Assembly: GCA_902500205.1 (NCBI GenBank)
Contig: GCA_902500205.1_4868.1
DNA: 64,000 nucleotides
Source of the DNA: Escherichia coli
GTDB taxonomy: Bacteria; Pseudomonadota; Gammaproteobacteria; Enterobacterales; Enterobacteriaceae
Reading direction: 5' to 3' (one strand)
Below, one piece after another: positions 2,156-60,366 of the stretch. A model generated the notes under the pieces. That model was given only the letters and a program-made list of their open reading frames with translations, made no database searches and was not told the origin of the DNA. The position numbers and the translations under genes were made by a program. The stretch's first letter is position 1, and each line of letters begins with the position of its first letter.

Positions 2156-2177
2156 AATGCGCTACCTCTGTGGTGTA

Positions 2178-4448: not shown

Positions 4449-7400
4449 TTAGCTTGCTTTCCGACTTACGTTTAACGACGGTGTCGGTTGGGTTATTTCC
4501 TGCCTACGTGCAGCTGAGCCCGGAGGAGCCACATTTGCCGCTTGCTGGATACTACCACCCCGTGTGTCGTTTGCCGCTCTTGGATTTGATTTCAAAATAT
4601 CACGAATCTCTTTCAAGTAATCGCGAGACTGAATCAGTACCTTGAGCTGCTGAACATCTATCGGGTCACCATTCAGCGTTGGCGTCGATGCTGTAGCATC
4701 AGAAGTTGGAGCGGCAACTGGACGAGCTGCTGCGTTAACCTGCGCTTCCGCGCCTGCTTTCACTTTAGCAACATCCGTTGCAGACAATCCTTCTGCTGCA
4801 GCTTGCGACGCTACGGTTTCGGCTGTTGTTGAGGCATCGGATGTTCCGGAACCACCTGTAGTTGGTGTAGGTGCTGCTGGTCCTACATTACCTGCGGCGG
4901 TAGCCATTGCATCTTGTGCCGCCATGGCCCCTTTCTGCGTCAATGCGTCATCACGACGATTAGCATTATCTGCTGGCAGGTTATCTGCTGGCGACAGACT
5001 CGGGTCATTAGCGGCCGGTGCACCCATTGCTGCTGCCGGGTTGGTTGGTGAGTTAGGCGACAATCCTGCAACCATATCCTTCGTCTTGCTCGGGTCGGCA
5101 GCGACTTCGTTGGCGGAAATTGCGCCCATGCGGCGGTTCAGTTCCTGAATAACCCCGTCTACGCTACGTATACGACCGTTGCTGTAGAAGACGTTGGCAT
5201 TCCCTCTCAATATTGCGGATGTAATCCCAGGAGCACTCGATGCCGCCATGTTCGGATTACGCTTCCATGCTTCCAGGAATTTCTTACCGCCGCCTGCACC
5301 CAGGAAGTGGTACAGATAAGCCACGGCTGGAGGTGGTGCTTTACCACCCAGGTCACGCTGTGCTTGTTGGATGTTGTCACGAATGAACTGTACACCCAAT
5401 ATAGCATTCGCCCACGGGTCCATTTGGTTAACACGCGGAATACCAAACTTCCGCGAATACCCCTTCATCATCCCGTTCCACGTGCCGTCAATGAACTGGA
5501 ACAGCCCAGACGCCGAAGCATACGGGTTTTTAGCGGTGTAGTTAAATCCGGACTCCGCCTTAGCCATTGCTAACGCCACTGCAGGTGGCACGCCCATCAT
5601 GTTCGCCGCATCGGTAATCAATGCTTTGATATTCGGAACGTTCAACGCACCCTTTCTACCCAACATTTCTATCGGGTATTTTTCAGCCAGTGACTTATAA
5701 TCACCGTCTTTCACATCACTCAGGTTAATCGAAGACGAACCAGTGGTCATTGCAGCGTAGTTCCGCACACCACCAACCGCATCGACGACTTGACCCAAGT
5801 TACCCGGCACACCACCACTCGTACCCGATGGAATGTAGCCTGAGGCGCGAGCACCGTCAGATGACAAAGAATCTCCCGAACTGATGTTCGAGTCTTCTTC
5901 ATCTTCATCGGTGACTTCCAGAGAACTGCGGTTCTTGTTACGATCCTTCCAGCGCGCACGCTTGCCATTATTTCTAATGGCTTTAATCATGTTACGCACG
6001 GCAAGGTCAGCTTCTTTTGACAGCAGCTTCAGCGTTTCCAGTTCGGCTTTGATGGACGATGGGTTCGTGTTAGCCTCACCCCCTAATGGGTTGATATTCA
6101 CTTCCCACACCGACTGTCTTATACCACCTTTCAAGCTGTAGGCTGTTGACATCATCAAGCTGATTTCGTACAGGTAGCCGCCGGTCAGCTTCAAGTTCAG
6201 CGGATCGGCTGTTGGCAGGTAACGCTTCACCCCAACCAAATACGTCATGAATACCGGTAAGAAACGGTCAAAGAACCACCGTTTCAAACGATCTTCTTTC
6301 GGTGTACCGATAGCGTCTGGAACCATCGAGGCGATTGCTTTCTTCCAATCTCCTTTGTAGCTTGCGGTTTTCACGTCAATGTCTTTGATGACGTTCTTCT
6401 CGAATACCGTGATCAAAGTGCGGGTGGCGTTATCGATGGTGGTAAAGCCGTAAGTCTTCCAACGCACCGATTCCATCGCATTCATGTCTTTCTGGTCGAG
6501 CACCGCATTCCAGTCTACCTGAATCTGAACCTGCTCTGTTCCGTCTTCCCAACCTTCTACCTTCGCCAGATTTTTGTTACGTTCGTTATCCAGCTGTCCT
6601 AGTTTGTTGATAGCTTCATCAACGCCAGCGGATTTAATCCCCTCCACGGCCGGTGCCATTCCGTACTTACGTGCTTTCTTATCGTCCATTCTGGACTTGA
6701 TTGCACGCTCGACTTCATTCTGCACTTCCATAACCTCTTCACCGCTCAAAAACTCCTTCGGTGTAAAGGTTACGACGTCCCAAGCCTTCGAGAAGAAACC
6801 TTGGTTGACTTTGCGTGGGTCAGTTAACGAAGAGAACGCTTTTGCATCCTTAGTCATCTTCATTTTGTTGAAGAGAGTCAGCATGTCCTCTTTCGATACT
6901 TTCTTCGCATCGCCGACGTCAGCCAACTGGATACTGTTCGGCATTGACTTCAGTGCCGTAATCCAGCGGAGATAAATCGGAATAAAGCGCTGAAGCATAA
7001 ACGCTTGGAAGGCCAACATCTCGCCTTTTTCCTCAACGTTAATACCGAACCCTTCAGCTAGCTTCTGAACGTCTTTTCCACTTAGCCCGCGGAGACTGGC
7101 TTGGCCATCTTCCGCGTAAGACACATACTCACGCAATGCGTCTTCTAAGTAACGCGCTTTCGCCCCGTCGTCCGACGACCACTTATCGTAATCACGGAAA
7201 CCGTACTGAGCTAAACGCATCTTATCCAGGTACTGGGTATAGGTAGTCGTTGCAATCCTGTACGCGGCGTAACCAGCCGCGGCGATCGCACCACCGATAA
7301 GAATTGCCGGCCAGCCCACTGCTGTCACGACGGCAGATGCCGCAGTTGCCACAGCGGACACCGCGGGTGCCGCCAAACGGGTTACTGCGAACTTACCGAC

Positions 7401-10400
7401 ATTCCACGCAGCCTTACCTAAAAGACCTACTGGTTTTAACACACCCCATTTCGTGATAGAACCGAGTATATTACCCACAGTTCCCAAGATACTGACGATG
7501 GGACCGATGATAGGTAAGCCTTTCACCATATCCCACAGACCGCCAGATTTCCCTTTGGAGCCCCGCGCTTTCTCTTTCTTCTCCTTACGTTTCTCACGCC
7601 AACGTTTGAAGAAGTTAAGGTAGTCGCGTTTTTCATCACTTTCAGGTGGCTTGTTACGTTTACCGAACTTCGCAAACATGGTACGAATAATGCCATCGTC
7701 ACCACCTGCACGGGATACTGATTCGCGCATGGTGTTAAACCATGACATCTCTTGCAAGCCGATCATTCGGTCCAAGCGTTCGAATAACCTTGCACCTGCA
7801 GACTTGGCAGCATTCTTCCCTTTGTTGATAACCCGACCTGCTGCATCGCGCGCGGTCTCAAGGTCGTCCTTCGCGTCACCGTAGACTTTACGGCCAGAAA
7901 GACCACCTTTCGCGTTCAAATGGCTGCGATAAAACTCAGCAACATCGTCATCACGTCCAGCCAACCGACGTTCAACTTCGTAACGTGTAGCAATGTCGTG
8001 TCGTGCTCCACGATATCCATCGAGCATATCCCCAGCCCGGCCTCGGAAACCACTGAACCAACCACGCAGGCGGTCACGTCCACGACCAAAGAACGCTTTT
8101 GTTCTTGACCAACGTCCACCAAAACGTTCAGACAATGACGATTTCGCACGATTATACGCCCCGCGAACTGCACGGCCGATCGTACTACCACCGCCACCGA
8201 CACCCTTCTCCATTTCTTCTGTCCAACTTTCGTCTTCCGGATCACCCGGTAAACGTTGGTTCAACAGTTTGTAGATACGGATAAGAATGTGGTTGGTTTT
8301 CTTGCCGGTTGATGAGAAGAGACTGAAACCACCACCCCCACCATCTTTACGGCCTTTCCACCAACGCGTCAGTGGGTTGTCGGTAATCATGTCTTTCAGA
8401 CGGTCGACACCACGTTTCGCAAAACCGAGCACTTTACCCGGTAAGCTCGTTACGCGGTTGAACGCTTTCTGGAGACGTGTCTTTTCTTCGCCTTCCGGAA
8501 TCTCGTTCAGCCAGTCCTTAATCTTACCAACGATGCTGCCCGCTTTCGGTGACAGGAAATCCAGGAACCGTTTCGGTAGCTTAGCCACCTTATTAAAGCC
8601 TAAGCCAATCTTACTGGCCAGACCTTGGGTCAGTGCTTGGATTTTCCCGCCTTTATAGTAGCGGAGTTTACCCGCAGCGGCTAAGTCAGCGGCTGCTAAT
8701 ACCAGATTACCTGCGGAGTCAACAATATCACTCCCCAGTTTGATGTCGTCCAGCGTTTTCAGCTGAACCATTTTACCATCAATGACCTGATAGTATTCTC
8801 CAGCTTCCAGACGCGCACCTTGCAGAACAACATTACCGTGGTCATCGTAAACGTCGCGGATACCCAGCAATCCTTTACCGAAAGAGCTTACCGCTTCAAA
8901 GCCCCCACGGACACTACCGCTGATAAGGCCACGCATCCGGGTTAAGAAACCAGGACCTTCTCCGCCGCCCATCCCCGCGATTTTACCGCGCGCCCAGCCA
9001 CCGAACTGATTCAGTTTATTCCAGGCACCTTTAACACCACGTTTTGCAAAGCCACCGATTCCTGCTGCAGTGTCGAACAACACACCGCCCCAACGACGAA
9101 TAAGCCCATCCTCACCGATGATAATACGGCGGCGTTTACCGCCACCGCTACCACCACCAGGACGAGGTGGTCCCATCTCTTCGTCACCAGAACCAGCACC
9201 CCCTGCTAACGAAGCCAGGAGAACCCCTTCTTCGTCCATACTTCTGACGTGTTCCAGAATTTTCTGGAGGGTGTCACTGTTGTTGTTACCCCGAATCGCT
9301 TCGATGATACCGTCAAAGTTATTCCGTGGTGCTTCTTCGCCACGGTTACGTTGACTCAACAATTCAACAAAGTTAGTCGAGGTTTCACCGTAGAGAACTG
9401 CGGCTAACTGCCGAGGCGACATTCCGCGGCCTTTACCACCGCCACGTAAAGCCGGCGGCAACGACGTGTCATCGGCACCACCACTTGCCCCTTGGTTCAT
9501 TCGGCGCAGATAGTCGCCTAACGCCGAACCGTTTTGCAGCTTACGTTGAATCTCCTGCTCACGAGTCAACGCACGACCGCTGCGTGTCTTACCCATTGCC
9601 AAGTCATTAAACAAGGTATAGGGATCGGACAGGTCTTTATCCACGCCGAAAGTGTCACTCTTCGCGTCGTAGTTAAAGATACCCGCATCGCGCAATGCTC
9701 GCTCACCGTAAATATTCACCGCCTCGTCGATAATTGCCTGACGTTGGGTGATAGATGACTGCACTGTGGAGATTTTGCGGGCCAGCTCGTTACTTAATTC
9801 GTTGCTACCGCCGACCAAGCTATCAGAATGCCCCTGTAACGCTTCCTTAATGCGTTCTGCGGCGTTTCCTGGCATATACCGATGAAGATGCATCGGGTCT
9901 TTCAGAATCGCTTCTACGTCGAATGCACGACCCTGCGAGGCACGTGACTCGATATAGTCGGCAAGATGCTGCCGATCCTTCTGCGAGAGCGTTTTGCCAC
10001 GGTCAACAAAATCTACAGTGCTGTTAATGGAATTTTGGAGACGCAGACGTTGCTCATCGTTTGCAACCGCCTTGCGTACGCGGTTACCGAGCACTTTGCG
10101 GTCTACAAAACCGCGGCTGGTGATGTCGTATTCCAGGTCGGCATGTTCGCCATAACCCCGACGAACAGATTTGTTAATCTCTGCCAGCCAGGCAGGAATA
10201 ACTTCAACCAGGCTAAGATATGCTTTACGGTCAAATTTCGCCGAACGGCTTAACGTTTCGCCATTACGTTCGTCAAGGAAGGCTTTCTCACGGTTTAACG
10301 GTTGGACAATACCGAGTTCATTCAATACCCGGAACAAATCCGCCAACGGTCCTTGCGTTTCGCCTGCGATGGCCGAGTTAGAGATAGAGGAAAGATTACC

Positions 10401-11570
10401 AAAGGTGAACGCGCCTTTCTGCAGGCGTTTCATGACCTCTGGATTTTTCTCCATCTCCTCGCGAGTCCATTTCTGGAGTTTCTCGATTTGTGGGCCGAGT
10501 AGTTTCTTCGCAAGGAATCCACTACCCCACGCAGTTGCTTTATCGCGAGCATTTGTTTTGCGACGTTCAGCAGTCAACGAAGAGCTGTCGCTCATGCCGA
10601 AATCGTCTTCAACACCCATGCCGAGAACAGACTCTAACAAACCACGACCTTCGCCAAATATACCAGAAATCTTCTTCTTGGTATTTTCGCGAATCATGTC
10701 CATAAACCCGTCAGCATAACGCAACGGGTTCATCCATTCCGCAGCCTGGCGTTTAACGTTCGCCCAACGGACTTCTGAGAAATCTTCCTTCGCGTAATCC
10801 GGCAATGCCGTGTTCTTCACGATGGCTTCTAAAGCAGGCGTATTACGATCGAACTCCGACTGCTTCATCTTCACGATGTCTTGAATGGCGAACAGGGTAC
10901 GGTATTGCAATTCGAGTTTCTTACGCTCGATGTTTAAGAATACCCCACGGCTTAACCCGGTTAACAGGTTAATGTCCTTCGCCATTCCAATCATGGTTTG
11001 GTGCATTGCATCCGCGCGCATCTCTTTGATGCTGTCGCGGAGCTTATCCTCTACCATGCGGTCCTGCAGCTGACGTTGTTCGTCGGCGTCCTTTGGCACA
11101 CCTGAGAATACGTCGCCCAGTTCACGATCCATCAATGCCTGATTCGGATCGTAGTTCTGGTAATCTAACTGGTCAGATTTTGACCACTTGTCGAAGCGCT
11201 TAGTAACTGCATCCGGCAAGTATTTCTTCATCGTCGGACCGAGTTGGCGCGCTTGCATCTTCAGCGTGCGCTCGGTCTTCTCAAGCTCCCCTTTCGTATG
11301 GGCGTAAATGTCCTTTGCTGCAGCTGCCGCTGACTGATAACCCTCGTATGCATCAGCTGCCGGCTTAGGCATCCCCTTGAGGATAACTTGGTCGCGTTTC
11401 CCTTCTGGCCAGATAGTTGACAACGCCGACTTCCTGGCAACATTCAGGGTACTGAGTATCGGGCTTCGTTTTTTCTCGTCTTTGGGACGGGGTGGTTCAC
11501 CGAAATCATCCCAGTCGTCGAGTCTATCTAAATCGATATCATCGAAACCGTCTTTGCCTCTTTTTGCCAT
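4449..11570 (-). CDS. giant virion protein (2373 aa) with C-terminal SLT-type lytic transglycosylase domain (phiKZ gp181-like)
   Basis: Single 7.1-kb ORF; C-terminal [35 protein letters not shown]...[10 protein letters not shown] matches SLT motifs (DNA about 5060-5440); Gly-rich low-complexity segments. Confidence 0.85.
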   Translation of the reverse strand: [2373 protein letters not shown]

Positions 11571-11600
11571 AATGTTTCTTCCAATTCAGGAGCCTAAAAA

Positions 11601-13214
11601 GTGAGAAAGCTTAACTGGGTAGATTTTTATCTACTGAACGTTAATAAGTCCCTGGTGTCGCATTTAAAACCAGTTACAACAACAGACACCTTTCAGGGAC
11701 TGACGAAAAACTTTCACCCTGAAGGACTGTATTCAACCGAAATTTTTGGCCTCACAGGGAGCGAAGCACGAGACTCAACGTTCTCGTACATTGATATCAA
11801 ACTGGATATCATTTCGCCGACCGTTTGTTTGGCATTGTTCCAGCTGAAACAGCTGTACGAAGAAATCTGTTCCGGGAAGCGATTCGCTATCTGGAATGAG
11901 AAAGAAAAAGATTTCGAGCCGGCTCTGCCCAGTGATAAAGGTGCAGACACCGGCTTCAACTTCTTCCTACGCTACTACGAACAACTGACACCGGGACGCA
12001 ACGAGTCGATGCGTCGCGACGAGACAGTCGATTTCTTCAATAAGTTCCGTCCGGTCAGTCTCAGCCGCTATGTGCTGGTTCTGCCTGCGGGATTACGTGA
12101 TTTGGTCATTCGTCAGGATGGCCGCGACCAAGAAGAAGAGATTGGCGGACTCTACCGTCGTCTGATTTCTCTGGCGCGTGCAATCCCCGACCGCAGTACG
12201 CGAACGGAACTGACTGACCCGGTTCGCTGGAAGCTCCAACAAACCTTTAATGACATCTGGATGTACTTCTTCAACATCCAGGATGGTAAAGGTGGTTTTG
12301 CACGTCGTAAAGTGACGTCACGTAAGTTAATGAACGGTACGCGTAACGTACTGTCTTCATTCTCAACCGGTTCCAAGGTCATGGGTCGCGAAGATGCGAT
12401 TCGTCCAACGGATACCCGTATCGGTTTGTACCAAACCCTGAAGGCATTACTGCCTGTGGCTCAATACCACATCCGTGAACGTTACCTCAGTAACATCCGG
12501 GCAGGGGACGGCAACTTATACGGCGTTAACACCAAAACACTCAAGCGTGAGTTCCTGGAAGTCTCCGGGCGGGTGTATGACCTTTTCACTACCGACGATG
12601 GCATCGAAACACTCATCAACAGAATGGAAGCGCGCGAGCTTCGACATAAACCGCTGATGATTGATCCGGACCATTACGTGGCATTAATCTACCAGGACAA
12701 ACGCAGCTTCAAAATCTTTTACGATATTGAAGACCTGCCGGAAGGACGTGACCGTAAGCTTGTCCGCGGACTGAGCTTAGCGGAACTCCTCTATTTGTCA
12801 GGTTACGATATTTGGAATGACTACTTCTCGTTCATCACGCGTTATCCGGTTACGGGACGCGGTTCGACTTACTCCTCGACCATAAGATTGGAGACCACCA
12901 CTTCTTCCCTCTATTTGCATGAACTGGAAGACGATTGGGTCACGTTAAAAGAGAAGGGTGCAATTAGTTTCCCTGACCGTACCGTGAAAACCTTTGTGGA
13001 ATCCATGGCACCACACCCATCCCGATTAGGGGGCTTGGGTGGTGACTACGATGGTGACACCGGCTCAGCAAACTGCCCGATGTCAACCGAAGCGCTCGAG
13101 GAAAATCGGAAGTGGGTCAGTTCGAAAAACTACTGGTTTGCAACAGACGGCAGTTTCAAAATCAATCCGGTTAATAACGTGATTAAAAGAACGACTGCTG
13201 CGCTGTTGAAATGA
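11601..13214 (+). CDS. RNA polymerase beta-prime-like subunit fragment carrying DYDGD (NADFDGD-like) motif; candidate virion RNAP subunit
   Basis: GTG start with AGGAG 9 nt upstream; GGDYDGDTG near residue 475, matching position of NADFDGD in bacterial beta-prime. Confidence 0.55.
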   Translation: MRKLNWVDFYLLNVNKSLVSHLKPVTTTDTFQGLTKNFHPEGLYSTEIFGLTGSEARDSTFSYIDIKLDIISPTVCLALFQLKQLYEEICSGKRFAIWNEKEKDFEPALPSDKGADTGFNFFLRYYEQLTPGRNESMRRDETVDFFNKFRPVSLSRYVLVLPAGLRDLVIRQDGRDQEEEIGGLYRRLISLARAIPDRSTRTELTDPVRWKLQQTFNDIWMYFFNIQDGKGGFARRKVTSRKLMNGTRNVLSSFSTGSKVMGREDAIRPTDTRIGLYQTLKALLPVAQYHIRERYLSNIRAGDGNLYGVNTKTLKREFLEVSGRVYDLFTTDDGIETLINRMEARELRHKPLMIDPDHYVALIYQDKRSFKIFYDIEDLPEGRDRKLVRGLSLAELLYLSGYDIWNDYFSFITRYPVTGRGSTYSSTIRLETTTSSLYLHELEDDWVTLKEKGAISFPDRTVKTFVESMAPHPSRLGGLGGDYDGDTGSANCPMSTEALEENRKWVSSKNYWFATDGSFKINPVNNVIKRTTAALLK

Positions 13215-13232
13215 TACCCATAAGGCACATGT

Positions 13233-16200
13233 ATGATTTTTCTGAAACAGTTTAACCAGCGCTTTACCGTGCGCAAGACCGATGAGTTCGGTCGTCCGCG
13301 TATTATCCCGCTGGAGAAGCTCCAGCTCCCACGTGGTTCTATCTACCACACCATCGATTTAGACCAGGTGGTTTTAGCACCACCGTTAACCACACCATGT
13401 TTTGGTCAGCTGGAAAAACCGGCGATGATTCGTCACCACTTCCAGCTGCCTGAAGACGGCATTATTGGCCACCCGCGTAAGAAACCGGTTGTTGGTCAAG
13501 AGCGCCAAATCTTCCAGTACCATCGTAACAACCGTCGTATTCGTCGCATGATTGAAGACGGCGTGGTACGTTCCGATCCGAAAGTGCTGCTCATCGAAAA
13601 CTACACCCCGATGCTGCCGCATTATTTCTACCCTGATACTCTGATGTCCTGGTACGAACGTCTGCACAACATTCAGCTGCTGATAACTAACCAGATGAAA
13701 ACTGACTCACGTGAGTACATGCGTCAGAACTACTACATCATCGAACTGGGTAACGTACTGCCTTCTTTCGATCGTTTTAAAATGACGTATAACGATCGTG
13801 TTAAAACCAAACTGGAGCGCTTTAAGGACTTTAATCTCCTGTGGTTACTGGAACTGTTCGGTTGGGCTTACGGCGATCAGCAAGCAACCCTGTTTGACGG
13901 TATGGACATGAACCAGCTGTCACGTGTGAACTTTATCTTCACGCACAACGGTGGTTTTACATCCATGAACATGGGTGTAATTGAAAGAATGCGTAAGTCT
14001 GCCGGTGGTCGTTTGACTGACGTGCAGATGGGCAGAATGTTCTACCGTACACTGACTACTGTGATGACCACACCGCCGTCTACCGACTACGAAGATGACG
14101 AGTTCGTTACACCGGAAGGGGACGAACGCGTACATCTGGGAGAGGACGACGATGTTGTTGAAGCCGTTGCCAGTAAACCGGAAGAAACCCTCGATATCGT
14201 CGACGATGAAGCAACACAAAGCGACAACGTTGACGATATATTGAACGATCATGAGTTCGATGAGAAAGAAGATCTGGTCATCGAAGCGCCGAAAGAAGAT
14301 GTCAAACCAACCACCATCGTCGTAGAACGCACCATCCCACACGATGCTGTGATTAAACAGGAAGTTGAGCGCCTGGCAGAAGCGGGCCGCGTCACCGCCA
14401 AAGCGTATCAGTTCCTGAACGAATCTTCTAAACGTTTCGTAAACTTACCCAACCCGTACAATCCTAAAGAGACGTACGGCGAAGGCCTGACCATCGATCC
14501 GAAGAAACTCGAAGTTAAAGCCGAGCCTAAGAAGATTGAACGCTTAGTTACGGATGAAGCCTGGGCGGAAAATACCACCGACCAAATCATTCGTCAGTAC
14601 AACCAGGAAATCTTCCCGAAAGATATTCTGGGGGCAGTAGCGTCATCCCAACGTCTTGGTTTAGCGATTCACAATCACACTGTCGAGAAAGAGATTTCCG
14701 TTACCGGGAATATCGAACACCACACGTTGCGTATTCAGCCGATTGGCGGAGAACCAACCACGGTACGTTTCTCAATTCCTGCATTAACCGAAGACGGTAC
14801 TTGGGTTGCAAATGGTGTGGAATATACAATGCGTCGTCAGCGTGTTGATCTTCCTATCCGTAAAGTGTCCCACGATACCGTAGCGTTAACCACTGCCTAC
14901 GGGAAGAACTTTGTCCGTCGCAGTGATAAAGTCGTCAATGATTACGGACGTTGGCTCACTAATGCGATTATTACTCGCGCGGTCGATCCGAAGAACACCG
15001 AAATTACTGATGCAAAACTGGCGAATGTGTTCGATCCGCTGTCTAAACTGCCGCGTCAGTACACCGAGGTGGCACGTCGTGTAGCAGCGTTCAACGCAAT
15101 TGGGTACCAATGGAACTTTGACATTAAACAGAAAGCGGCATTCTTTAACGAAGGGCAACTGGCAGACGCGGACCGTGTCGAGCTGGTACCTGTGGCGAAG
15201 AAACCGCGGAGTCATGTCATCGTCGGTATGGATAAAAACTCCCAGCTCTATCGAGTGGATAAGGATAAGACCGAACCACTGGGTACGCTCGCCGAAGTCT
15301 TTGGCGTGGACACCTCTAAGGCTCCACGTGAAATGACCGAACTGTCACTGATGGGCAAATCAATCTCGCTGGGCTTTGTGTTTGCGTACTATCTCGGGTT
15401 AACCGGGATGTTGAAACACTTTGGTATCAGTTACGAGGTTCTCTCTGTCGGACAACGTATCGATAAAGGTCAGTTCGACTCCATTATTCGTCTCCAGGAT
15501 GCGAAAATTGCAATTGTCTGCGAGAACGATCAACAGAGGATGATTGTCAACGGCTTAGACCGTTACATTAAACATTTTACCACGTATACCGAGTCGGAAG
15601 TTGACCGGGAAGACATTTACCTGAACCTGTTACGCGATGCAGATGGGCTAACACCACGCTACATCAAAGAGCTGAAACTGATGCGGACCGCATTTGTTGA
15701 TGACATGCACGCGCGTATCCTCAGGAAAATGGGCGAGCCGGAAACCTTTATCGGCTTACTGGAGCGTTCTAACGAACTGCTGCAGACGGACCACACGTTA
15801 CCGGAAATTAACGGTGACGAAATGATGTTCATCGGGAACCAACGTATTTCGTATCACATCTACACCGCGATGGTGCGGGCGATGCGTAACTACAACAACG
15901 CGCCTAACTCAAATCGTAAGTTTGAGTTGACGCAGGACATGGTGTGGGGTGCAATTAACTCCGACCCGTCTGTTCTGCTGGCTCCTGGCGCAAACCCGGT
16001 ACAGAACATCAAAGAAAAAGATGTTGTTACCATGGGCGGTACAGGTGGTCGTAACCGCAAGACCATGGTCTACAGTACCCGTGAATTCCAACCGAGCGAC
16101 CTGGGGATTATCTCCGGTAACACGGTCGATAACGGCGACGTAGGTATCACCGCCTTTGCAACAAACAATCCGCGTTACGACACCGTGGACGGCACGACCT

Positions 16201-17438
16201 TTAAAAAGGACCTCGATAAACTGAAGCCAGGTGAGGCACTGTCATTTATTGATGGCTTGGTGCCGGATACCCTGATGGACGATGCTAAGCGTCAGAACTT
16301 CGTTGGGATTCAATTCGGTTCTGCGACCAGTTGTGTTGGCGCAACCACCACACCGTATCGTACCGAGCAAGAAAAGTTCGTGGCACACCGTACTTCTGTG
16401 AAGCACGCACGCGTAATCGATAAACCTGGCAAGATTGTGGAGGTTCTTAACGACCACGTTAAAATCAAATACGACGACGGAGAGGAAGAAGCTTTCCCAC
16501 TGGGCCGTTGGTTCGGTCCGCACGAAGGGACTTACTACCCACACACTCTGGTAACGAAATGGAAGCGCGGAGATAAACTCCCTGCCGGTGCCGTTATCAC
16601 GTACAACGAACAACACTTTGAACCAGACATCTACGATCCAACGCAGGTCAGTTTTAAAAACGGGATACTGGCAACTGTCGCTTTGATTGAAGGGGAAGAA
16701 GTAATTGAGGACTCCAACGCCATTAGTGAGCGGTTCGCTGCTAAGGCTGAAGCCGATGTTACCAAACTCAAAGAAGTCACAATGACGTTTACCCAGAACC
16801 TGTTGGAGATGGTAAAAGAAGGGGACCACGTAGACGTGGATTCAATTCTATGCACCTTCACCGACAACCTGACCGGCGATATGAGCGGGTTCAGTAAAGA
16901 AGCAGCGGAAACGCTGCGTGAGTTAAGCTCCTTTGCACCACGCTCTGGTGTTCGTGGGTTTATCGACAAAATCGAAGTGGTTTACCACGGCGAGGTGGAA
17001 GATATGACCCCGTCTTTGGCGGAGATGGTTCGTAAATACGACCGTATACGTCGGAAGACTGCGCTGGCTCTCAAACGTGACGAGCCGAAGGACGGTCGAG
17101 TCAACGGTGATTTTCGTGTTGAGGGGGTGCCGTTAGCGTACAATAGCCTGTGTGTCCGATTCTACATCACACACCGGGTAGAGATGGCAGCAGCGGATAA
17201 GATGGTTATTGCTAACCAGCTGAAAACGACGGTTCAGGAAGTGATGTATGGAACCAACAAAACGGAAGACGGGCAGGAACTCGACATTATCTTTGGTCGT
17301 GATTCCGTCGACGCACGTATCGTAGGTTCTATCATGCGCATCGGAACCACCAACGCTGTCGGGTATCGTGGTGGGGAGAATATCGGACGCATCTTAGATG
17401 GTGAAGACGTCCCAGCCTTGCCGGCTAAAATCAACTAA
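13233..17438 (+). CDS. large protein (1401 aa), function unassigned; possibly RNAP-associated
   Basis: Long ORF immediately downstream of beta-prime-like gene; no motif I can name confidently. Confidence 0.8.
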   Translation: MIFLKQFNQRFTVRKTDEFGRPRIIPLEKLQLPRGSIYHTIDLDQVVLAPPLTTPCFGQLEKPAMIRHHFQLPEDGIIGHPRKKPVVGQERQIFQYHRNNRRIRRMIEDGVVRSDPKVLLIENYTPMLPHYFYPDTLMSWYERLHNIQLLITNQMKTDSREYMRQNYYIIELGNVLPSFDRFKMTYNDRVKTKLERFKDFNLLWLLELFGWAYGDQQATLFDGMDMNQLSRVNFIFTHNGGFTSMNMGVIERMRKSAGGRLTDVQMGRMFYRTLTTVMTTPPSTDYEDDEFVTPEGDERVHLGEDDDVVEAVASKPEETLDIVDDEATQSDNVDDILNDHEFDEKEDLVIEAPKEDVKPTTIVVERTIPHDAVIKQEVERLAEAGRVTAKAYQFLNESSKRFVNLPNPYNPKETYGEGLTIDPKKLEVKAEPKKIERLVTDEAWAENTTDQIIRQYNQEIFPKDILGAVASSQRLGLAIHNHTVEKEISVTGNIEHHTLRIQPIGGEPTTVRFSIPALTEDGTWVANGVEYTMRRQRVDLPIRKVSHDTVALTTAYGKNFVRRSDKVVNDYGRWLTNAIITRAVDPKNTEITDAKLANVFDPLSKLPRQYTEVARRVAAFNAIGYQWNFDIKQKAAFFNEGQLADADRVELVPVAKKPRSHVIVGMDKNSQLYRVDKDKTEPLGTLAEVFGVDTSKAPREMTELSLMGKSISLGFVFAYYLGLTGMLKHFGISYEVLSVGQRIDKGQFDSIIRLQDAKIAIVCENDQQRMIVNGLDRYIKHFTTYTESEVDREDIYLNLLRDADGLTPRYIKELKLMRTAFVDDMHARILRKMGEPETFIGLLERSNELLQTDHTLPEINGDEMMFIGNQRISYHIYTAMVRAMRNYNNAPNSNRKFELTQDMVWGAINSDPSVLLAPGANPVQNIKEKDVVTMGGTGGRNRKTMVYSTREFQPSDLGIISGNTVDNGDVGITAFATNNPRYDTVDGTTFKKDLDKLKPGEALSFIDGLVPDTLMDDAKRQNFVGIQFGSATSCVGATTTPYRTEQEKFVAHRTSVKHARVIDKPGKIVEVLNDHVKIKYDDGEEEAFPLGRWFGPHEGTYYPHTLVTKWKRGDKLPAGAVITYNEQHFEPDIYDPTQVSFKNGILATVALIEGEEVIEDSNAISERFAAKAEADVTKLKEVTMTFTQNLLEMVKEGDHVDVDSILCTFTDNLTGDMSGFSKEAAETLRELSSFAPRSGVRGFIDKIEVVYHGEVEDMTPSLAEMVRKYDRIRRKTALALKRDEPKDGRVNGDFRVEGVPLAYNSLCVRFYITHRVEMAAADKMVIANQLKTTVQEVMYGTNKTEDGQELDIIFGRDSVDARIVGSIMRIGTTNAVGYRGGENIGRILDGEDVPALPAKIN

Positions 17439-19251: not shown

Positions 19252-19266
19252 TAAAGAGAGGTGGTC

Positions 19267-19989
19267 GTGAGCGCCATTGAAACAGCACGTCGTGACGCGA
19301 CGAAAATTCATGCAGATTTAGTGGACCAAGGCACGGCCACCATCACCAAAGGGGGATGTTACATTTACATCCCTGTTGGCTTCGTGGCTAAAGAGCTGGC
19401 GGTAATTTCTTCGCAAGTCGAAATCGTCGGTATTTTCGCTATCTCCACTGACCGCAAAACCTACGGGGTATCGAACGTCACGACGTTCATTGAAATTACC
19501 CCGTCGGCGTTTGAGGAAATTGACGTTCAGGGTGTGCCGTATTACGAGTTCCGTTTTGACCCCGGCACGGTGGTGTTCCCCAACCGAATGCTGCAAGTGC
19601 TCTCCTCGCCAGTCTACAACATCGCTTCGTACATCTACGACTTCGGAAACCGGCCTTTCTGGTACACCGCAGTAGATGACGCTGAGCTATTGTCTGACAC
19701 TAAGACGTGGAACGGCTTTACGGTCTTTAACGACCAGATCACCGCTGACTGTTATGCTGCCCACACACAGCGTAAGGTTGGCGACCCGCGGACGTATTTC
19801 CGCTACACCCTGAAAAAAGACAGCGATTTGATGAATCGGGTGCAGTTTATTCCGCTGCGTTCAGGTTCATTGAACAAAACTTCCCGGCTGGCCAAGATTG
19901 CAGATGTGGAACTGAAACAGGGTATCCGTTCTGCACTCCAGGTCGATCCGGTACGTGCAGAGCCACTCGAGGATTTGTATATGAGGTAA
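19267..19989 (+). CDS. hypothetical protein (about 240 aa)
   Basis: ORF 19261..19989; GTG at 19267 has GAGAGG 5-6 nt upstream. Confidence 0.6.
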   Translation: MSAIETARRDATKIHADLVDQGTATITKGGCYIYIPVGFVAKELAVISSQVEIVGIFAISTDRKTYGVSNVTTFIEITPSAFEEIDVQGVPYYEFRFDPGTVVFPNRMLQVLSSPVYNIASYIYDFGNRPFWYTAVDDAELLSDTKTWNGFTVFNDQITADCYAAHTQRKVGDPRTYFRYTLKKDSDLMNRVQFIPLRSGSLNKTSRLAKIADVELKQGIRSALQVDPVRAEPLEDLYMR

Positions 19990-42212: not shown

Positions 42213-42288
42213 AGGAAAGTGACGCAATTGGTAGCGTACCGGTCTCCAAAACCGGCTGTTTAGAGTTCGAGTCTCTACTTTCCTGCCA
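42213..42288 (+). tRNA. tRNA-Trp (anticodon CCA) with encoded 3-prime CCA
   Basis: Hand-folded cloverleaf: 7-bp acceptor AGGAAAG/CTTTCCT, D-arm ACGC/GCGT, anticodon stem CCGGT/ACCGG with loop CTCCAAA, T-arm TAGAG-TTCGAGT-CTCTA, discriminator G then CCA. Confidence 0.85.
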
Positions 42289-43636: not shown

Positions 43637-43706
43637 GGCTTTGTAGCTCAGGTAGGTAGAGCAGCCTCTTCGAGGAAGGTCGCCGGTTCGAGACCGGTCA
43701 AAGCAA
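43637..43706 (+). tRNA. degenerate tRNA-like element (possible pseudo-tRNA)
   Basis: Canonical D-arm (TAGCTCAGGTAGGTAGAGCA) and T-arm (CCGG-TTCGAGA-CCGG) but mismatched anticodon stem, 1-nt variable loop and G1-A72 mismatch. Confidence 0.3.
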
Positions 43707-56478: not shown

Positions 56479-58332
56479 ATGGTAAAAATCGTTGACTCTA
56501 ACAACAACGCTCAGCAGAACAACACTCAGACTCAAGACACCGCACCACTGGGCGGTCTGGGCAACGAGACTGTAAAAGTGCAAACTGCTGTGCCGGGTAC
56601 TTCTACTGTCAGCCAATTCGATAACGCATTTGGCATCCGCAACATCAGCACCTATGCAATGCACTTCGTCAACCTCCTGGACGAGCTGAAGAAAAGCAAC
56701 GAATACCTCAACGCGTTCCGCTGGGGCACCATCGCCGGCGTGGGTAACGAAATGGGTTCCGCGGCGTATGTCGCAGGCCAGTGGCAGGGCCACTGGCTGT
56801 ATGGTATCATCTTCTTTGAACGCGGTCAGTCTCTGCGTCTGAAAGAAACTACCAACAACGGCCAGGAAGACTACTACACCATCACTGAACTGTTCAACAA
56901 AGACGTGCTGGCAGTAGTACAGAAAAACATCATGGAAGCGCATGGTCTGACCAATGCGAACTTCATGATCATCAACTCCGTACCAGACCTGGGTAAAGTT
57001 CTGGATGCTGAGTGGGCACGTACTCTGATGGGTCAGATGATGATGGGCATCTTCGGTCGTATCGCAGGCTACCTGGGTACGCTGAACCTGCGTAAGCATG
57101 ACCGTTATCAGGCTGCAGTAATGCCGCTGGAAGATGGTGCGGTTGTGGATGCTAACGGCCACGCACAGCGTGCTGATTTCGCAATCACCGTTGAACACAG
57201 CCCAAGCAACGTAACCGACGCCACTCCGACTCTGCTGGACACCAATCAGGTACAGGTGTATCCGCGTGTATCCGGTACTGGTTTCGTCAATATGCGTTTC
57301 ACCGGTCAGAAGCCTGTCGTTAACGGCGTCTACGACCTGAAACAGCTGCAGGCTGAAATCGTAGTAAGTCTGATCGATTCTCAAACTGAAGGTGCAATGG
57401 CACCGTATGAACGTCAACTGCTGCTGCTGGCTGCATTTGCAGAAATCGCGGCAATCGGTGGCTGGCGTGACCTGTTTGTGAAACGTCTGAACAAACAAGA
57501 TCGCAAGTTCTCCCGTGTGGCAGAATACCTGTCCTGGGGCGCTGACGCTCGTCCTGACGTATCCAAAATCGACGGTAGCCGTGAAGCTATCGAAGGTTGC
57601 CTGGATATGTTCGCACCGCGTGAAGCAGCACTGGTAGTTAGCCATCGTGCCGGTAACGGCCTGGGTGGTCTGTCTACTTTGCTGTCTGAAATTGCGGTCG
57701 GTTACGACAACTCTCTGAAACAGCTGCTCGCTATTCTGAATTCCATGTCCCCGCGTGATCAGAACGGCGAAGTTGTTGCAGCGACCAGCTTCACTGCAGT
57801 ATTTGCTTCTGCACTGAAAGCACAGCTGGGCGATGCCTTCAATGGTACCATCCATTGCAGCCACATCGTGAAAGCAGCCGTACCGACTGTTTCCGGTGTT
57901 TACACCGGTACTGCACAGAAACGTAGCTTCCAGGATATGGACCTGATTTCCGTTGTTACCAAACTGGGTGATAACGCGAACGACGTCTATAGCTACCTGA
58001 ACGCACAGTCCTACAGCCACCGTGAACTGAACGAGCGTCAACAGCGTATCTACATGCTGAAACTGGCCGCTTCTCTGTTCGCATCCAAAGCACCGCAAGC
58101 TACCGGTGAATCTCTGGATATGGCTATCAACCCGATCTTCGGTAAATGCCTGCTGGACTTCGTCCGTAACAACTGCACCTGGTCTATGACTGGTGTAAAT
58201 GCCTACAACACGATGGCGACCTCTCTGTTCTTCAACAACGGTGGGGAAGACTTCACGCTGTCTGGCAACGGCCTGTCTGCAAGCGGTTCCGATTTCGGTC
58301 TGGGCGTGACTCTGAGCAACTTCAAACTGTAA
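56479..58332 (+). CDS. abundant 617-aa protein, candidate chimallin (phage-nucleus shell protein); major capsid protein not excluded
   Basis: Strongly host-optimised codons; conserved leader plus AAGGAAT RBS; directly upstream of a beta-prime-like gene, mirroring the phiKZ shell-protein/nvRNAP-subunit adjacency as I recall it. Confidence 0.8.
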   Translation: MVKIVDSNNNAQQNNTQTQDTAPLGGLGNETVKVQTAVPGTSTVSQFDNAFGIRNISTYAMHFVNLLDELKKSNEYLNAFRWGTIAGVGNEMGSAAYVAGQWQGHWLYGIIFFERGQSLRLKETTNNGQEDYYTITELFNKDVLAVVQKNIMEAHGLTNANFMIINSVPDLGKVLDAEWARTLMGQMMMGIFGRIAGYLGTLNLRKHDRYQAAVMPLEDGAVVDANGHAQRADFAITVEHSPSNVTDATPTLLDTNQVQVYPRVSGTGFVNMRFTGQKPVVNGVYDLKQLQAEIVVSLIDSQTEGAMAPYERQLLLLAAFAEIAAIGGWRDLFVKRLNKQDRKFSRVAEYLSWGADARPDVSKIDGSREAIEGCLDMFAPREAALVVSHRAGNGLGGLSTLLSEIAVGYDNSLKQLLAILNSMSPRDQNGEVVAATSFTAVFASALKAQLGDAFNGTIHCSHIVKAAVPTVSGVYTGTAQKRSFQDMDLISVVTKLGDNANDVYSYLNAQSYSHRELNERQQRIYMLKLAASLFASKAPQATGESLDMAINPIFGKCLLDFVRNNCTWSMTGVNAYNTMATSLFFNNGGEDFTLSGNGLSASGSDFGLGVTLSNFKL

Positions 58333-58360
58333 TCGAATCGGTTACTGAGTAGTTAGGAAA

Positions 58361-58414: not shown

Positions 58415-59923
58415 GTGAGAAAGGTACCAAAATTCTACGGAATATCCGGCCGGTTGGTTAGTCAGGATAACTATTTGTCCGATTTGCAAATAGAAGCTGC
58501 TGCCAAAGGTATTAAACCACCCACTATTATTAACGATGTCGCCGTTAACGGGGATGCGATCGAGGTTGCTGAACTTATCGATCGCATGGTACAGAACAGA
58601 ATCGTTGACGAAGAACTGAACTCTGCACCGATTTGTAGTTTGGATTGTCCGGCACCGATCGCGCATCGTTACAATCTCGGTTGTAAGTGTCCGACGTGTG
58701 GCTATGTTGTAACTGAACATCGAATTGAATCCGATGTCTGGTTACGTGCACCCGATGAAATGGGTAACTTCGTCAACCCACGATTCTGGGCAATGTTCAA
58801 TGCTTTCTTTAATAGCAAGTTGAAGAAGTTTGAACGTAACAAGGTCACTATCGAACGCGGTAATGACTTGATGATGTGGATGATTGACCCGTATTACCGT
58901 ATAGAAGAACCAGACGGTAAACGCGCACATGCTGTGAAACGTGTATTGGAAGAACATGGTTTCGTTCGTGGCTTGCGCAATCTGGTTGATAACCACGTTA
59001 GTATCTTTAACATCCTTACCACGCCAGAAGCCTGGAAGGAAATCTTCGCACCTAATCGGCATAACGCCGCTGAAGGTGAACGCTTACGTTTACAATGGAA
59101 GGAGCTATTCGAAACGCAACGCCATGCATTCTTCCCAAGACACTTACCGCTAATCTCCTCTAAGCTTATCGTTACTGAGGAAGGTCGTCGTGGTGTCATG
59201 GTAGACCCAGTGTTCACGGGTGCTATCGATGCGGTGAAAAATATCGCGTTACTTTATACGCGGCGTAAAGCGATCGAACCACGTTTTCTGATTAGTCGCG
59301 CTTTGAAAGCCAACCGTCAGTTAACGTACTTCCACATGGACTTCCGTCGTGAGTCTATGGAAGGTAAACCGGGTGACTATCGTGCGAAATTGGGTTCTAC
59401 CCATATCCCATTCGGTGGTCGTGCAACCATCTCACCTATCTCAGAACCACACGATGCCTGGAAGTTAAAAGCACCATGGCGTTGGATGGTTGGGTTGATG
59501 TCGACCCACATCGAGAACAAACTGCTACGACGGGGTTATTCGTCACGGCAATGTGAACGTATCGTTGCAAAAGCGGCAATGCAGTATGACCCGCTTGTAG
59601 ATGAAATCTTTAAAGAACTGATTCGTGAATCCCCAGGCGGTCTTGGGATCATGGTCATACCGCTACGTAACCCAACGCTGGTACAGTTGTCTATTCAAAC
59701 GCTGTACATCGATGAAGTTGTTACCGATGTTAACCAGTGTTCGCTGCGTATCTCTGACCGTGTGATCAAGATGGCTAACGGTTCGAAAAGAGCCCCATCG
59801 GACGGGAAACCTCTGATGCGTATTCTCCTGAAATGCTGGGAAACCCTAAAGCGTATCTACCAGAAATGGGGACGAAAGTCTGAAACAACAGATACGATGG
59901 CCTACGCTAAACAATACTGCTAA
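58415..59923 (+). CDS. RNAP beta-prime-like N-terminal subunit, 5-prime exon (frame reads on into candidate intron before stopping)
   Basis: Zinc-ribbon pattern CSLDCPAPIAHRYNLGCKCPTCG near residue 73-95; LRNPTLVQLSIQTLY resembles beta-prime NRAPTLHRLGIQAF; NADFDGD absent from this ORF. Confidence 0.75.
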   Translation: MRKVPKFYGISGRLVSQDNYLSDLQIEAAAKGIKPPTIINDVAVNGDAIEVAELIDRMVQNRIVDEELNSAPICSLDCPAPIAHRYNLGCKCPTCGYVVTEHRIESDVWLRAPDEMGNFVNPRFWAMFNAFFNSKLKKFERNKVTIERGNDLMMWMIDPYYRIEEPDGKRAHAVKRVLEEHGFVRGLRNLVDNHVSIFNILTTPEAWKEIFAPNRHNAAEGERLRLQWKELFETQRHAFFPRHLPLISSKLIVTEEGRRGVMVDPVFTGAIDAVKNIALLYTRRKAIEPRFLISRALKANRQLTYFHMDFRRESMEGKPGDYRAKLGSTHIPFGGRATISPISEPHDAWKLKAPWRWMVGLMSTHIENKLLRRGYSSRQCERIVAKAAMQYDPLVDEIFKELIRESPGGLGIMVIPLRNPTLVQLSIQTLYIDEVVTDVNQCSLRISDRVIKMANGSKRAPSDGKPLMRILLKCWETLKRIYQKWGRKSETTDTMAYAKQYC

Positions 59924-60126
59924 CGGTTGTGATAATGGGTAATCAGCAGCGAAGCCTCGTGAGAGGAACGTTCAACGACTATCGCTGAAATGCGAGTAGG
60001 GGTCCCAGTGGACTTCGAAGTGGGAGAACACCTAAGGCGATAGCTATGGTGAAGATATAGTCTGTGCCTTATCGAGAGATAAGGAGGGTGTCTTAGCACA
60101 CCTGCTGTATACGGAAACGGTATACG
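59762..60126 (+). mobile_element. candidate group I self-splicing intron (no internal ORF); boundaries approximate
   Basis: Elements resembling group I Q, R and S in order: AATCAGCAGC (59941), GTTCAACGACTATC (59970), GAAGATATAGTC (60051); GACTAT/ATAGTC can pair as P7; GNRA-capped hairpin CCTTATC-GAGA-GATAAGG (60067-60084). Confidence 0.6.
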
Positions 60127-60366
60127 GTGGACAAACAGGATTTCGATGGCGACCAGTTCCAGGTACGTTTGCCAGTCGATGAAACTGAGATGAAGTTGGC
60201 GCTCCAATTCCGTCCAGATAACGGCTTTATGTCTTCTACTGATGTGGACCGCGTAGAACACGGCATGGTTTTACATAACGAGCTAATCAGTATGCAGAAC
60301 CAGTTCCTTATTGAAGCAGATGAGGATGATGAAGAAGGCATTCCGTTGGAAGCGGTGATGGGCTAA
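60127..60366 (+). CDS. 3-prime exon of the beta-prime-like gene, carrying the catalytic DFDGD motif
   Basis: VDKQDFDGDQFQVRLP matches NADFDGDQMAVHVP; no ATG or credible RBS of its own (track start is GTG). Confidence 0.65.
   Translation: MDKQDFDGDQFQVRLPVDETEMKLALQFRPDNGFMSSTDVDRVEHGMVLHNELISMQNQFLIEADEDDEEGIPLEAVMG

Follow-up and report, generated by a model that had tools for sequence, protein, structure and literature searches.

Catalytic-subunit genes of two multisubunit RNA polymerases, very probably one virion-packaged and one not, in DNA of an SPN3US-like jumbo phage

The main finding of this work was that genes for catalytic subunits of two multisubunit RNA polymerases (RNAPs), one packaged in the virion (vRNAP) and one not (nvRNAP), are very probably present in the window, i.e., the whole stretch of 64,000 nucleotides that was analysed. 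As the first-pass annotation had proposed, two different beta-prime-like N-terminal genes were found, one matching PHROG 2986 (E 2.9e-238) and the other, which contains an intron, matching PHROG 2987 (E 5.2e-155). The separate virion and non-virion polymerases that it had read from them are supported, since the 537-aa product is orthologous to SPN3US gp240 and the spliced product of the second gene matches phiKZ gp55/56.1. Sequence comparison assigns the window to an SPN3US-like chimallivirus genome of the genus Seoulvirus (Salmonella jumbo phages), with identities of 99.5% to Salmonella phage JN03 at the nucleotide level, 99.8% to SPN3US at the protein level and about 99% to SPN3US-like Salmonella jumbo phages. 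Each RNAP set is covered in part, three subunits of the vRNAP and a single one of the nvRNAP being encoded in the window (Table 1). Two multisubunit RNAPs are a hallmark of phiKZ-related jumbo phages and both have already been described for this phage type, so that the finding is correct, already known and ordinary; as proteomics and genetics had identified the SPN3US subunits years ago, it brings no new biology, and its practical value lies in the annotation of near-identical phage records.

Table 1. Features of the two putative RNAP regions, with positions in the window and the evidence for each
Feature	Position	Strand	Evidence
Tail protein of 2373 aa with transglycosylase domain, giant virion protein (SPN3US gp239 tape measure)	4449..11570	-	PHROG 3201, transglycosylase PHROG 4067
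Shine-Dalgarno AGGAG, 8 nt upstream of the GTG start	11588..11592	+	read from sequence
vRNAP N-terminal beta-prime-like subunit, 537 aa (ortholog of SPN3US gp240, phiKZ gp180)	11601..13214	+	PHROG 2986, tblastn, PDB profile, Foldseek
Codons of the DYDGD metal-binding motif, residues 482-486	13044..13058	+	sequence and family alignment
vRNAP beta-like subunit, 1401 aa (ortholog of SPN3US gp241, phiKZ gp178)	13233..17438	+	PHROG 3148, 1969 bits
Ortholog of SPN3US gp244 and phiKZ gp176, proposed C-terminal-most beta-prime segment of vRNAP	19261..19989	+	PHROG 2926 'virion structural protein'
Chimallin by predicted fold, 617 aa, phage nucleus shell protein, phiKZ gp54 position	56479..58332	+	AF2 and Foldseek
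nvRNAP beta-prime N-terminal subunit, exon 1, codons 1-456 (ortholog of SPN3US gp23, phiKZ gp55)	58415..59782	+	PHROG 2987 positions 1-417
Zinc-ribbon-like Cys cluster C74, C78, C90, C92, C95	58634..58699	+	phmmer alignment with CxC...CxxC of phiKZ gp55
Group I intron, 356 nt, no endonuclease ORF	59783..60138	+	Rfam RF00028, 69.4 bits
nvRNAP beta-prime N-terminal subunit, exon 2, 75 codons and stop	60139..60366	+	PHROG 2987 positions 418-477

The 537-aa protein is covered over its full length by PHROG 2986 ('RNA polymerase beta subunit'), and it is 99.8% identical to SPN3US gp240 (tblastn) and 33% identical to phiKZ gp180 (E 5e-77), which is annotated as a 'structural head protein'. Orthology to both was demonstrated in this analysis, as was that of the spliced protein to SPN3US gp23 and phiKZ gp55. 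Pfam-A, run on single sequences, gave no match for either beta-prime protein, for the 1401-aa beta protein or for the 617-aa protein, and the beta-prime homology thus emerged only from family profiles, PHROGs and structure. A single-sequence phmmer search of the 537-aa protein against the PDB was not significant (E 0.39), its local alignments already falling on the right motifs. With a profile of 38 homologs, 86 PDB sequences were matched at E<=1, and all of the 60 listed were beta-prime or gamma subunits of multisubunit RNAPs; the best profile matches included the AR9 chain 7S01_d (1.6e-12) and E. coli beta-prime (2.4e-7), each with a second aligned stretch at the catalytic motif. The AF2 model of the protein (pLDDT 82.8) gave 588 Foldseek matches in the PDB at E<=0.001, of which the best 50 were all beta-prime chains with probability 1.00, headed by AR9 7S01_d (E 2.6e-16). 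TM values for the matches to beta-prime chains were only 0.3-0.4, which is attributed to a differing relative orientation of domains in a lone multi-domain subunit. The AR9 nvRNAP beta-prime N-terminal chain (PDB 7S00/7S01 chain d), the best match of the family by both structure and profile, also carries DYDGD, but it is part of the non-virion enzyme in a Bacillus phage and its sequence identity to the 537-aa protein is only 13-14%. The first-pass annotation had called for a search with RNAP beta-prime profiles, which gave nothing at the level of Pfam-A and succeeded with PHROG 2986 and the family profile, and had named as contrary outcomes the lack of any RNAP match and a DYDGD block aligned to an unrelated fold, neither of which occurred.

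The DYDGD motif lies about 50 residues before the C-terminus, and the block aligned with NADFDGD of plastid beta-prime and with DYDGD of the AR9 nvRNAP, so that its placement at the beta-prime catalytic position holds. In the alignment of the 38 sequences of the family, the aspartates are invariant (D482 in 38/38, D484 and D486 each in 37/37) and the aromatic position is occupied by F in 28, Y in 6 and H in 3. Two other collinear beta-prime motifs, VLPAGLRD...LYRR and GKxGFxRxK...GTRNV, are also kept. Homology, fold and motif conservation were demonstrated here for both beta-prime proteins and, judging from the E-values of the two PHROG matches and from the Asp triad, the motif occurrences are evidently not due to chance. 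The 537-aa protein has three cysteines only (76, 90 and 492), and the 38-sequence alignment contains no conserved Cys and no column with at least 30% Cys; therefore a zinc ribbon is lacking, as had been noticed earlier. Since it is missing throughout the vRNAP beta-prime N-terminal family, this absence is a trait of the whole family and not a defect of this gene.

The lack of a zinc ribbon bears on another reading, in which the 537-aa protein would be a degenerate beta-prime relic devoid of catalysis, with only a structural or ejection role in the head, and the phage would have only one working polymerase. The F-to-Y change in the motif, the Pfam null and the fact that no vRNAP had been purified as of a 2020 review (PMC7598289) would also fit it. 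We consider it very unlikely, however, since the three aspartates do not vary among 38 homologs whose identity falls as low as 37%, the collinear motifs are kept and the active AR9 nvRNAP likewise uses DYDGD. Furthermore, SPN3US gp241, which is required for packaging gp240 and the other vRNAP subunits, is essential, and phiKZ is described as capable of developing when rifampin is present (introduction of PMC5105663). In the work on SPN3US by Thomas et al. (2016), gp240 was found in virions by mass spectrometry, including tailless particles, and was identified as the vRNAP N-terminal beta-prime subunit by virion mass spectrometry together with an amber mutant (PMC5105663). In that mutant, 241(am11), gp240, gp42, gp218, gp241 and gp244 were lost together (PMC5105663).

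This joint loss from particles also speaks against the possibility of a single polymerase core in which the two beta-prime N-terminal proteins serve as interchangeable alternatives, as could be imagined from the single beta-like gene (13233-17438) in the window, from which two full sets are not visible. In SPN3US, separate nvRNAP subunits are encoded outside the region corresponding to the window, gp35 being the beta-prime C-terminal and gene 77 the beta N-terminal subunit (PMC5105663), and the solved phiKZ nvRNAP structure contains gp55/56.1. To interchangeable subunits we give still less credence than to a dead relic.

Gene neighbourhood by itself is weak evidence for the vRNAP or nvRNAP assignment, and it is usable here because the gene order is colinear with that of phiKZ; this synteny was demonstrated directly. 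The giant virion protein that had been pointed out beside the 537-aa gene is indeed there, a product of 2373 aa whose gene is divergent from the vRNAP genes, and phiKZ gp181 occupies the same divergent position; its SPN3US counterpart gp239 was named the tape measure protein (PMC5694885). The phiKZ block gp181 / gp180-gp179-gp178-gp177-gp176-gp175 is colinear with the window products of 2373 aa / 537, 1401, 491, 242 and 267 aa, the last one being the protease, and the neighbours are the same in SPN3US (the gp239-like tape measure gene on the opposite strand upstream, the gp241 and gp244 orthologs and the prohead protease downstream). The 1401-aa protein is 29% identical to phiKZ gp178 over its full length (E 0); phmmer against the PDB gave no meaningful match for it, and its identity is taken from PHROG 3148 and phiKZ gp178. 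The gp244 ortholog is 30% identical to phiKZ gp176 (E 3e-33), and its role as the C-terminal-most beta-prime segment was proposed previously (PMC5105663). The vRNAP gene of the window is uninterrupted, unlike the phiKZ gp180 gene, in which a group I intron carrying the gp179 ORF (Rfam 92 bits) separates the first D codon of ADFDGD from the F codon.

The second beta-prime gene (58415-60366) is present as two raw ORFs, 58415-59923 and 60127-60366, that match consecutive parts of PHROG 2987 (positions 1-417 and 418-477). Its spliced product of 531 aa aligned by phmmer over residues 52-494 with gp55/56.1, a subunit of the purified phiKZ nvRNAP (PDB 7OGP chain A, E 1.4e-38), and it also matched AR9 nvRNAP beta-prime 7S00_d (E 2.5e-8) and residues 329-480 of E. 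coli beta-prime (E 9e-5). The canonical DFDGD and the zinc ribbon attributed to this gene were both recovered, the latter as a cysteine cluster that may be described as zinc-ribbon-like. DFDGD forms residues 457-461 of the spliced protein, its five codons (60139-60153) opening exon 2, and the 'MDKQ' that precedes it in the raw ORF is intron sequence. When the profile of the 537-aa family was compared by hhalign with the single spliced sequence, the match was weak (E 0.008, probability 4.8%, around GKxGxxRxK...GxR), and so direct paralogy of the two beta-prime proteins is not demonstrable by this method. Scans for sigma-70 promoters and intrinsic terminators around both beta-prime genes gave counts no higher than the shuffled expectation.

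The abundant 617-aa protein said to be encoded beside the intron-containing gene was confirmed there and is, by its predicted fold, a chimallin. Its AF2 model (pLDDT 78, pTM 0.81) was searched with Foldseek against the PDB and the best nine matches were all chimallins (E 2.6e-19 to 5e-16, TM 0.57-0.70), the next match having E 0.013. The identity was settled by the fold search only, because the sequence searches found nothing: phmmer and a 28-sequence profile gave no PDB chain even at E<=10 and tblastn returned only 'hypothetical protein' annotations, in agreement with the chimallin identity of 10% reported previously (PMC9365700). In phiKZ, the 'nuclear shell protein' gp54 precedes gp55, and phiKZ gp54, gp55, gp56 and gp56.1 correspond to the chimallin, exon 1, intron and exon 2 of the window. 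The likeness extends to the Cys cluster, the DFDGD motif, the location directly after the shell-protein gene and the presence of a group I intron at the site of this motif. In phiKZ the intron is inserted one codon further upstream (N/ADFDGD vs NG/DFDGD in the window) and encodes the HNH endonuclease gp56, whereas the window intron is ORF-less.

The identity and the boundaries of this intron were demonstrated here. It matched RF00028 over the full model (1-253) with an E-value of 1.6e-15 and a score above the gathering score of 50, and its fold z-score was -3.1. It directly precedes the codon for the first Asp of DFDGD, the 5' exon ending in U and the intron in G (AACGGU/UCG...ACAG/GAUUUC), and the predicted spliced junction is AACGGU/GAUUUCGAU. 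The boundary was read from the SPFM4 and SPN3US alleles, which are intron-less with an exact in-frame junction (AAT GGA GAT TTC in SPN3US), and the spliced ORF (MANG/DFDGD) has the same junction residues and length as these genes. A junction one base upstream (G/...A/) gives the same protein, but it breaks the group I U/G rule and was rejected. No complete ORF lies inside the 356 nt, where the only plus-strand ORFs of at least 60 aa are the read-through of exon 1 and an ORF running into exon 2.

That the interrupted gene is instead a pseudogene broken by an insertion, yielding a truncated product of 502 aa and a 79-aa fragment, or no functional product, was also weighed, as several GenBank records show the two separate products, EC001 for example with CDS named 'beta subunit 1' and 'beta subunit 2', and splicing is predicted from sequence. 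It was rejected as highly improbable on the intron score (69.4 bits), the U/G ends, the exact restoration of the frame and residues of the SPN3US and SPFM4 alleles and the conservation of the intron at 98-100% identity in six independent isolates; in addition, the solved phiKZ enzyme has gp55/56.1 joined over an analogous intron, and truncation would remove the catalytic triad from a subunit of the non-virion polymerase, by which late genes are transcribed in phiKZ (PMC5105663).

Taking these data together with previous studies, it is very probable that this phage, like the phiKZ-related jumbo phages in general, has two separate multisubunit RNAPs built from split beta and beta-prime homologs. 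The product of 11601-13214 is very probably an N-terminal beta-prime fragment with a double-psi beta-barrel bearing the Mg-binding Asp triad of DYDGD; it would be made late and assembled with the 1401-aa beta-like protein and other subunits into a complex that would be packaged in the head, injected with the DNA and used to transcribe early genes. The product of 58415-60366, probably a paralogous fragment with DFDGD and the N-terminal Cys cluster, would transcribe later genes, and its mRNA would have to lose the intron before the 531-aa protein could be made. The virion location and the early versus late roles follow the literature on SPN3US, phiKZ and AR9, and for the phage of the window itself catalytic activity and splicing are likewise presumed by analogy with these three phages.

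A mildly new observation is that the intron is polymorphic within Seoulvirus, being absent in SPN3US, ORF-less in the window and equipped with an HNH endonuclease ORF in SaP7. The SaP7 intron (1404 nt) is related to that of the window and has the same site and junctions, and its ORF of 288 aa carries NUMOD1 (E 4e-15) with a weak, below-threshold HNH_3 match, an HNH-NUMOD1 arrangement of the I-HmuI type. A comparable case is the intron endonuclease PhiPA3 gp210, encoded within a vRNAP gene (Birkholz et al., 2024, PMC11620839); there too, a group I intron sits in a chimallivirus RNAP gene at codons for conserved aspartates. The PhiPA3 intron, however, is in the beta-like vRNAP subunit (phiKZ gp178 homolog), while that of the window is in the nvRNAP beta-prime gene. 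As the window intron has no endonuclease, it is unable to attack other genomes, unlike the PhiPA3 gp210 intron. It is conceivable, though rather doubtful, that the ORF-less intron acts as an immunity allele against the HNH endonuclease of the SaP7 or Proteus phage 7 intron in co-infection, to which intron-less relatives such as SPN3US would be vulnerable. If so, the three allelic states of Seoulvirus would be a snapshot of intron-mediated interference competition like that of PhiPA3 gp210 against phiKZ, aimed instead at the non-virion polymerase. The absent, ORF-less and HNH-ORF alleles at a catalytic codon offer a small natural test system for homing and phage-phage competition, located in a genetically tractable Salmonella jumbo phage.

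Concerning annotation, the 537-aa ORF begins with GTG, and homology extends to its residue 1 in phiEaH2 or residue 11 in phiKZ gp180. This long start is favoured because of the Shine-Dalgarno sequence and the conserved N-terminal residues upstream of the shorter starts, and for the same reasons the starts giving 519 aa, as listed for SPN3US gp240 in PMC5105663, or 401 aa, as annotated in JN03, were rejected; no functional difference is implied. In several near-identical phage records the virion beta-prime gene is labelled 'hypothetical' or starts too late, and in several the non-virion gene appears as two CDS owing to a missing annotation of the group I intron.

By sequence, the window comes from an SPN3US-like, phiKZ-related phage, since the two polymerase regions singled out by the first-pass annotation share at least 99% DNA identity with Seoulvirus jumbo phages of Salmonella and Escherichia (JN03, 1252, EC001, and the SPFM and SPLA series), and the 537-aa product of the first region is 99.8% identical at the protein level (tblastn) to the type phage SPN3US. 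Very probably, the virion RNA polymerase (vRNAP) takes the active-site half of its beta-prime from the 537-aa protein, and the non-virion polymerase (nvRNAP) takes the same half from the 531-aa spliced product of a second gene, as is textbook for this phage group; the two-polymerase biology of the window is already known. Homology, fold, motif conservation, orthology, synteny, and the identity and boundaries of the intron come from the present analysis, while virion location and temporal roles are taken from the SPN3US and phiKZ literature. The records of SPFM1, SPFM5, SPFM6, SPFM7, SPFM10, SPFM12 and SPFM20 gave many low-identity fragments for genes that are 99% conserved in sister genomes, which looks like sequence-quality trouble in the assemblies and not biology.

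Coordinates of polymerase genes, introns and neighboring features (window positions unless stated)
Feature	Position	Strand	Remarks
vRNAP beta-prime N-terminal gene	11601-13214	+	537 aa, GTG start
gp241 ortholog, vRNAP	13233-17438	+	PHROG 3148; 29% identity, full length, to phiKZ gp178
gp244 ortholog, vRNAP	19261-19989	+	30% identity to phiKZ gp176
tRNA-Trp	42213-42288		anticodon CCA
Second tRNA	43637-43706		36.4 bits (Rfam)
Chimallin gene (on predicted fold)	56479-58332	+	617 aa
GC-rich hairpin	58356-58400		GGACGGGGG...CCTCCGTCC, then T-run
nvRNAP beta-prime N-terminal gene	58415-60366		531 aa when spliced
Group I intron in nvRNAP gene	59783-60138		356 nt
SbcD-like nuclease gene	62086-63237
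SaP7 intron	1984-3387 of SaP7 segment compared		1404 nt
phiKZ gp180-gp179 intron region	10346-11789 of phiKZ segment compared
phiKZ gp55-gp56-gp56.1 intron region	11186-12600 of second phiKZ segment compared

The 537-aa protein had no match in Pfam-A, and searching the PDB with this one sequence gave an E-value of 0.39, short of significance; in the local alignments VLVLPAGLRDL...LYRRLIS fell on LPVLPPELRP...ELYRRVI of beta-prime and GLGGDYDGD on GFNADFDGD. PHROG 2986 ('RNA polymerase beta subunit') covers the protein end to end (E 2.9e-238). When a family profile of 38 homologs was run against the PDB, 86 sequences matched at E<=1, and every one of the 60 listed is a multisubunit RNAP chain, either beta-prime or split gamma/beta-prime. 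The strongest came from the non-virion enzyme of phage AR9 (1.6e-12) and from beta-prime of E. coli (2.4e-7), each with a second aligned stretch at the catalytic motif. The AlphaFold2 model (mean pLDDT 82.8) gave 588 Foldseek matches to the PDB at E<=0.001, the best 50 of them all beta-prime chains. The earlier assignment to RNAP beta-prime is borne out by PHROG, family profile and predicted structure, and so is the reading of DYDGD (residues 482-486) as the catalytic motif, since it aligns to the NADFDGD/DYDGD block; neither of the two outcomes named beforehand as refuting the assignment was seen. The AR9 non-virion enzyme likewise carries DYDGD. The claimed lack of a zinc ribbon also holds, because none of its three cysteines (76, 90 and 492) is conserved in the alignment of 38 homologs, with identity down to 37%.

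A dead beta-prime relic might show a departure from DFDGD such as this, and strong evidence is against that explanation. The catalytic aspartates are invariant in the family (38/38, 37/37 and 37/37) while the aromatic position varies (F in 28 sequences, Y in 6, H in 3), so the tyrosine is, on this alignment, a tolerated variant and not a mark of decay. Concerning the gene itself, near-identical genomes disagree on its length, the counterpart being annotated as 401 aa in JN03 and SPN3US gp240 being quoted as 519 aa (PMC5105663). The 537-aa form is better supported than either, because an AGGAG precedes the GTG by 8 nt and homology begins at residue 1 (phiEaH2) or 11 (phiKZ gp180). In the EC001, 1252 and SPFM2 records the counterpart is labelled 'hypothetical protein'.

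Previous work on SPN3US indicates which polymerase is which. Both gp240 (beta-prime N-terminal), the ortholog of the 537-aa protein, and gp241 (1401 aa, beta N-terminal) were found in virions and tailless heads, an amber mutation in gene 241 removed gp240, gp42, gp218 and gp244 from particles, and these proteins were concluded to be the head-packaged virion RNAP (Thomas et al., 2016; PMC5105663). In the solved non-virion RNAP of phiKZ (7OGP), chain A ('PHIKZ055, PHIKZ056.1') is matched by the 531-aa protein at E 1.4e-38; the AR9 non-virion beta-prime and residues 329-480 of E. coli beta-prime are matched as well. The proposal of separate virion and non-virion polymerases is therefore upheld, and strong evidence opposes the two proteins being interchangeable subunits of one enzyme. 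As active-site halves of two polymerases, the 537-aa protein would serve early-gene transcription in the injected virion enzyme and the 531-aa protein later-gene transcription.

The first-pass annotation had argued from neighbors, a giant virion protein and a 617-aa protein; the direction was right and matches the phiKZ order, and it is orthology that bears the weight. The 2373-aa protein (minus strand), which corresponds to SPN3US gp239, a tape-measure-like protein of the tail that has a transglycosylase domain, and the following 537-, 1401-, 491-, 242- and 267-aa (protease) proteins are colinear with phiKZ gp181 and gp180, (gp179), gp178, gp177, gp176 and gp175. For the 617-aa protein no PDB relative was detectable by sequence search; its AlphaFold2 model (pLDDT 78, pTM 0.81) matched only chimallins in Foldseek (Goslar, 201phi2-1 and phiPA3; E 2.6e-19 to 5e-16; next E 0.013). 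On its predicted fold it is a chimallin, the phage nucleus shell protein, and its gene sits where phiKZ has gp54 ('nuclear shell protein'), directly 5' of gp55. The SPN3US homolog (GenBank SPN3US_0022) was named 'gp244' by Laughlin et al. (2022), a name that denotes a vRNAP subunit in Thomas et al., so that the numbering conflicts. Colinearity with phiKZ reaches past the polymerase genes, since an SbcD-like nuclease is encoded four genes after the nvRNAP beta-prime gene, as gp65 is in phiKZ.

The second gene was described as intron-containing, with a zinc ribbon and DFDGD, and this description stands. Its two open reading frames (58415-59923 and 60127-60366) cover successive stretches, 1-417 and 418-477, of a single PHROG family; the spliced protein has Cys 74, 78, 90, 92 and 95, a zinc-ribbon-like cluster that aligns to CxC...CxxC of phiKZ gp55, and DFDGD at residues 457-461. 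The Rfam model for group I introns matches 59763-60084 at 69.4 bits (E 1.6e-15; gathering score 50), and alignment to the intron-less SPFM4 and SPN3US alleles (1596 nt, 531 aa) delimits the insertion. The last base of the 5' exon is U (AACGGU|) and that of the intron is G (...ACAG|GAUUUC), the two bases that group I chemistry demands. With the insertion taken out, the product again reads MANG|DFDGD; exon 2 therefore opens with the codon for the motif's first Asp. Shuffled controls fold less well than the intron RNA (z = -3.1), and inspection by eye suggests a putative P1 helix in which bases 59770-59774 and 59780-59782 of the exon could pair with 59792-59799, with a U59782-G59792 wobble, closing a 9-nt loop. 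Strong evidence stands against a pseudogene, and we infer that the intron is spliced and the polymerases are active in this exact phage. EC001 and Lh1B annotate the gene as two separate 'subunits' because the intron was left unannotated; this division in EC001 and the vRNAP beta-prime start are possible fixes to public annotation.

Within Seoulvirus the intron is polymorphic: absent from SPN3US and most SPFM phages, 356 nt and ORF-less here and in six public records (98-100% identity), or 1404 nt with a 288-aa ORF in SaP7 and Proteus phage 7. The long form has the same two splice junctions, a core about 78-83% identical depending on the search (flanking exon 96%), and ~1060 nt replacing window bases 59783-59791; the ORF, which lies within these ~1060 nt, matches NUMOD1 strongly (E 4e-15) and HNH_3 weakly, below threshold. 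We found no mention of a Seoulvirus intron in the literature, the only full-text pairing of 'SPN3US' and 'group I intron' being a Twort-like Staphylococcus phage paper. Introns that carry endonucleases have been described from RNAP genes of chimalliviruses, and they have been shown to mediate PhiPA3-phiKZ competition (PMC11620839; review PMC12908238). Both phiKZ beta-prime N-terminal genes have analogous group I introns at most 2 codons from the window's site: gp55/gp56.1 is split N|ADFDGD with the HNH ORF gp56, whereas the window has NG|DFDGD and no ORF, and gp180 is split AD|FDGD with ORF gp179 (Rfam 92 bits). In paralogous genes, therefore, introns have repeatedly targeted the few bases that code for the beginning of the catalytic motif. 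With its three states at a catalytic codon, the polymorphism could be put to use in a tractable Salmonella system for testing competition mediated by introns.

In other jumbo phages, tblastn matches to the vRNAP beta-prime often end just short of the catalytic motif or come in pieces; Serratia phage 2050HW, for example, gives three pieces, and for several phages of Pseudomonas, Aeromonas, Vibrio and Photobacterium the aligned part stops at residues 436-475. These broken matches suggest that further unannotated introns lie at or near the same site. Between the chimallin and nvRNAP beta-prime genes, a GC-rich hairpin followed by a T-run looks by eye like a terminator; the pattern scan made no call because the T-run begins >2 nt past the stem. 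A second tRNA has a weaker Rfam match and no ARAGORN call, and the tRNA-Trp was called by both tools.
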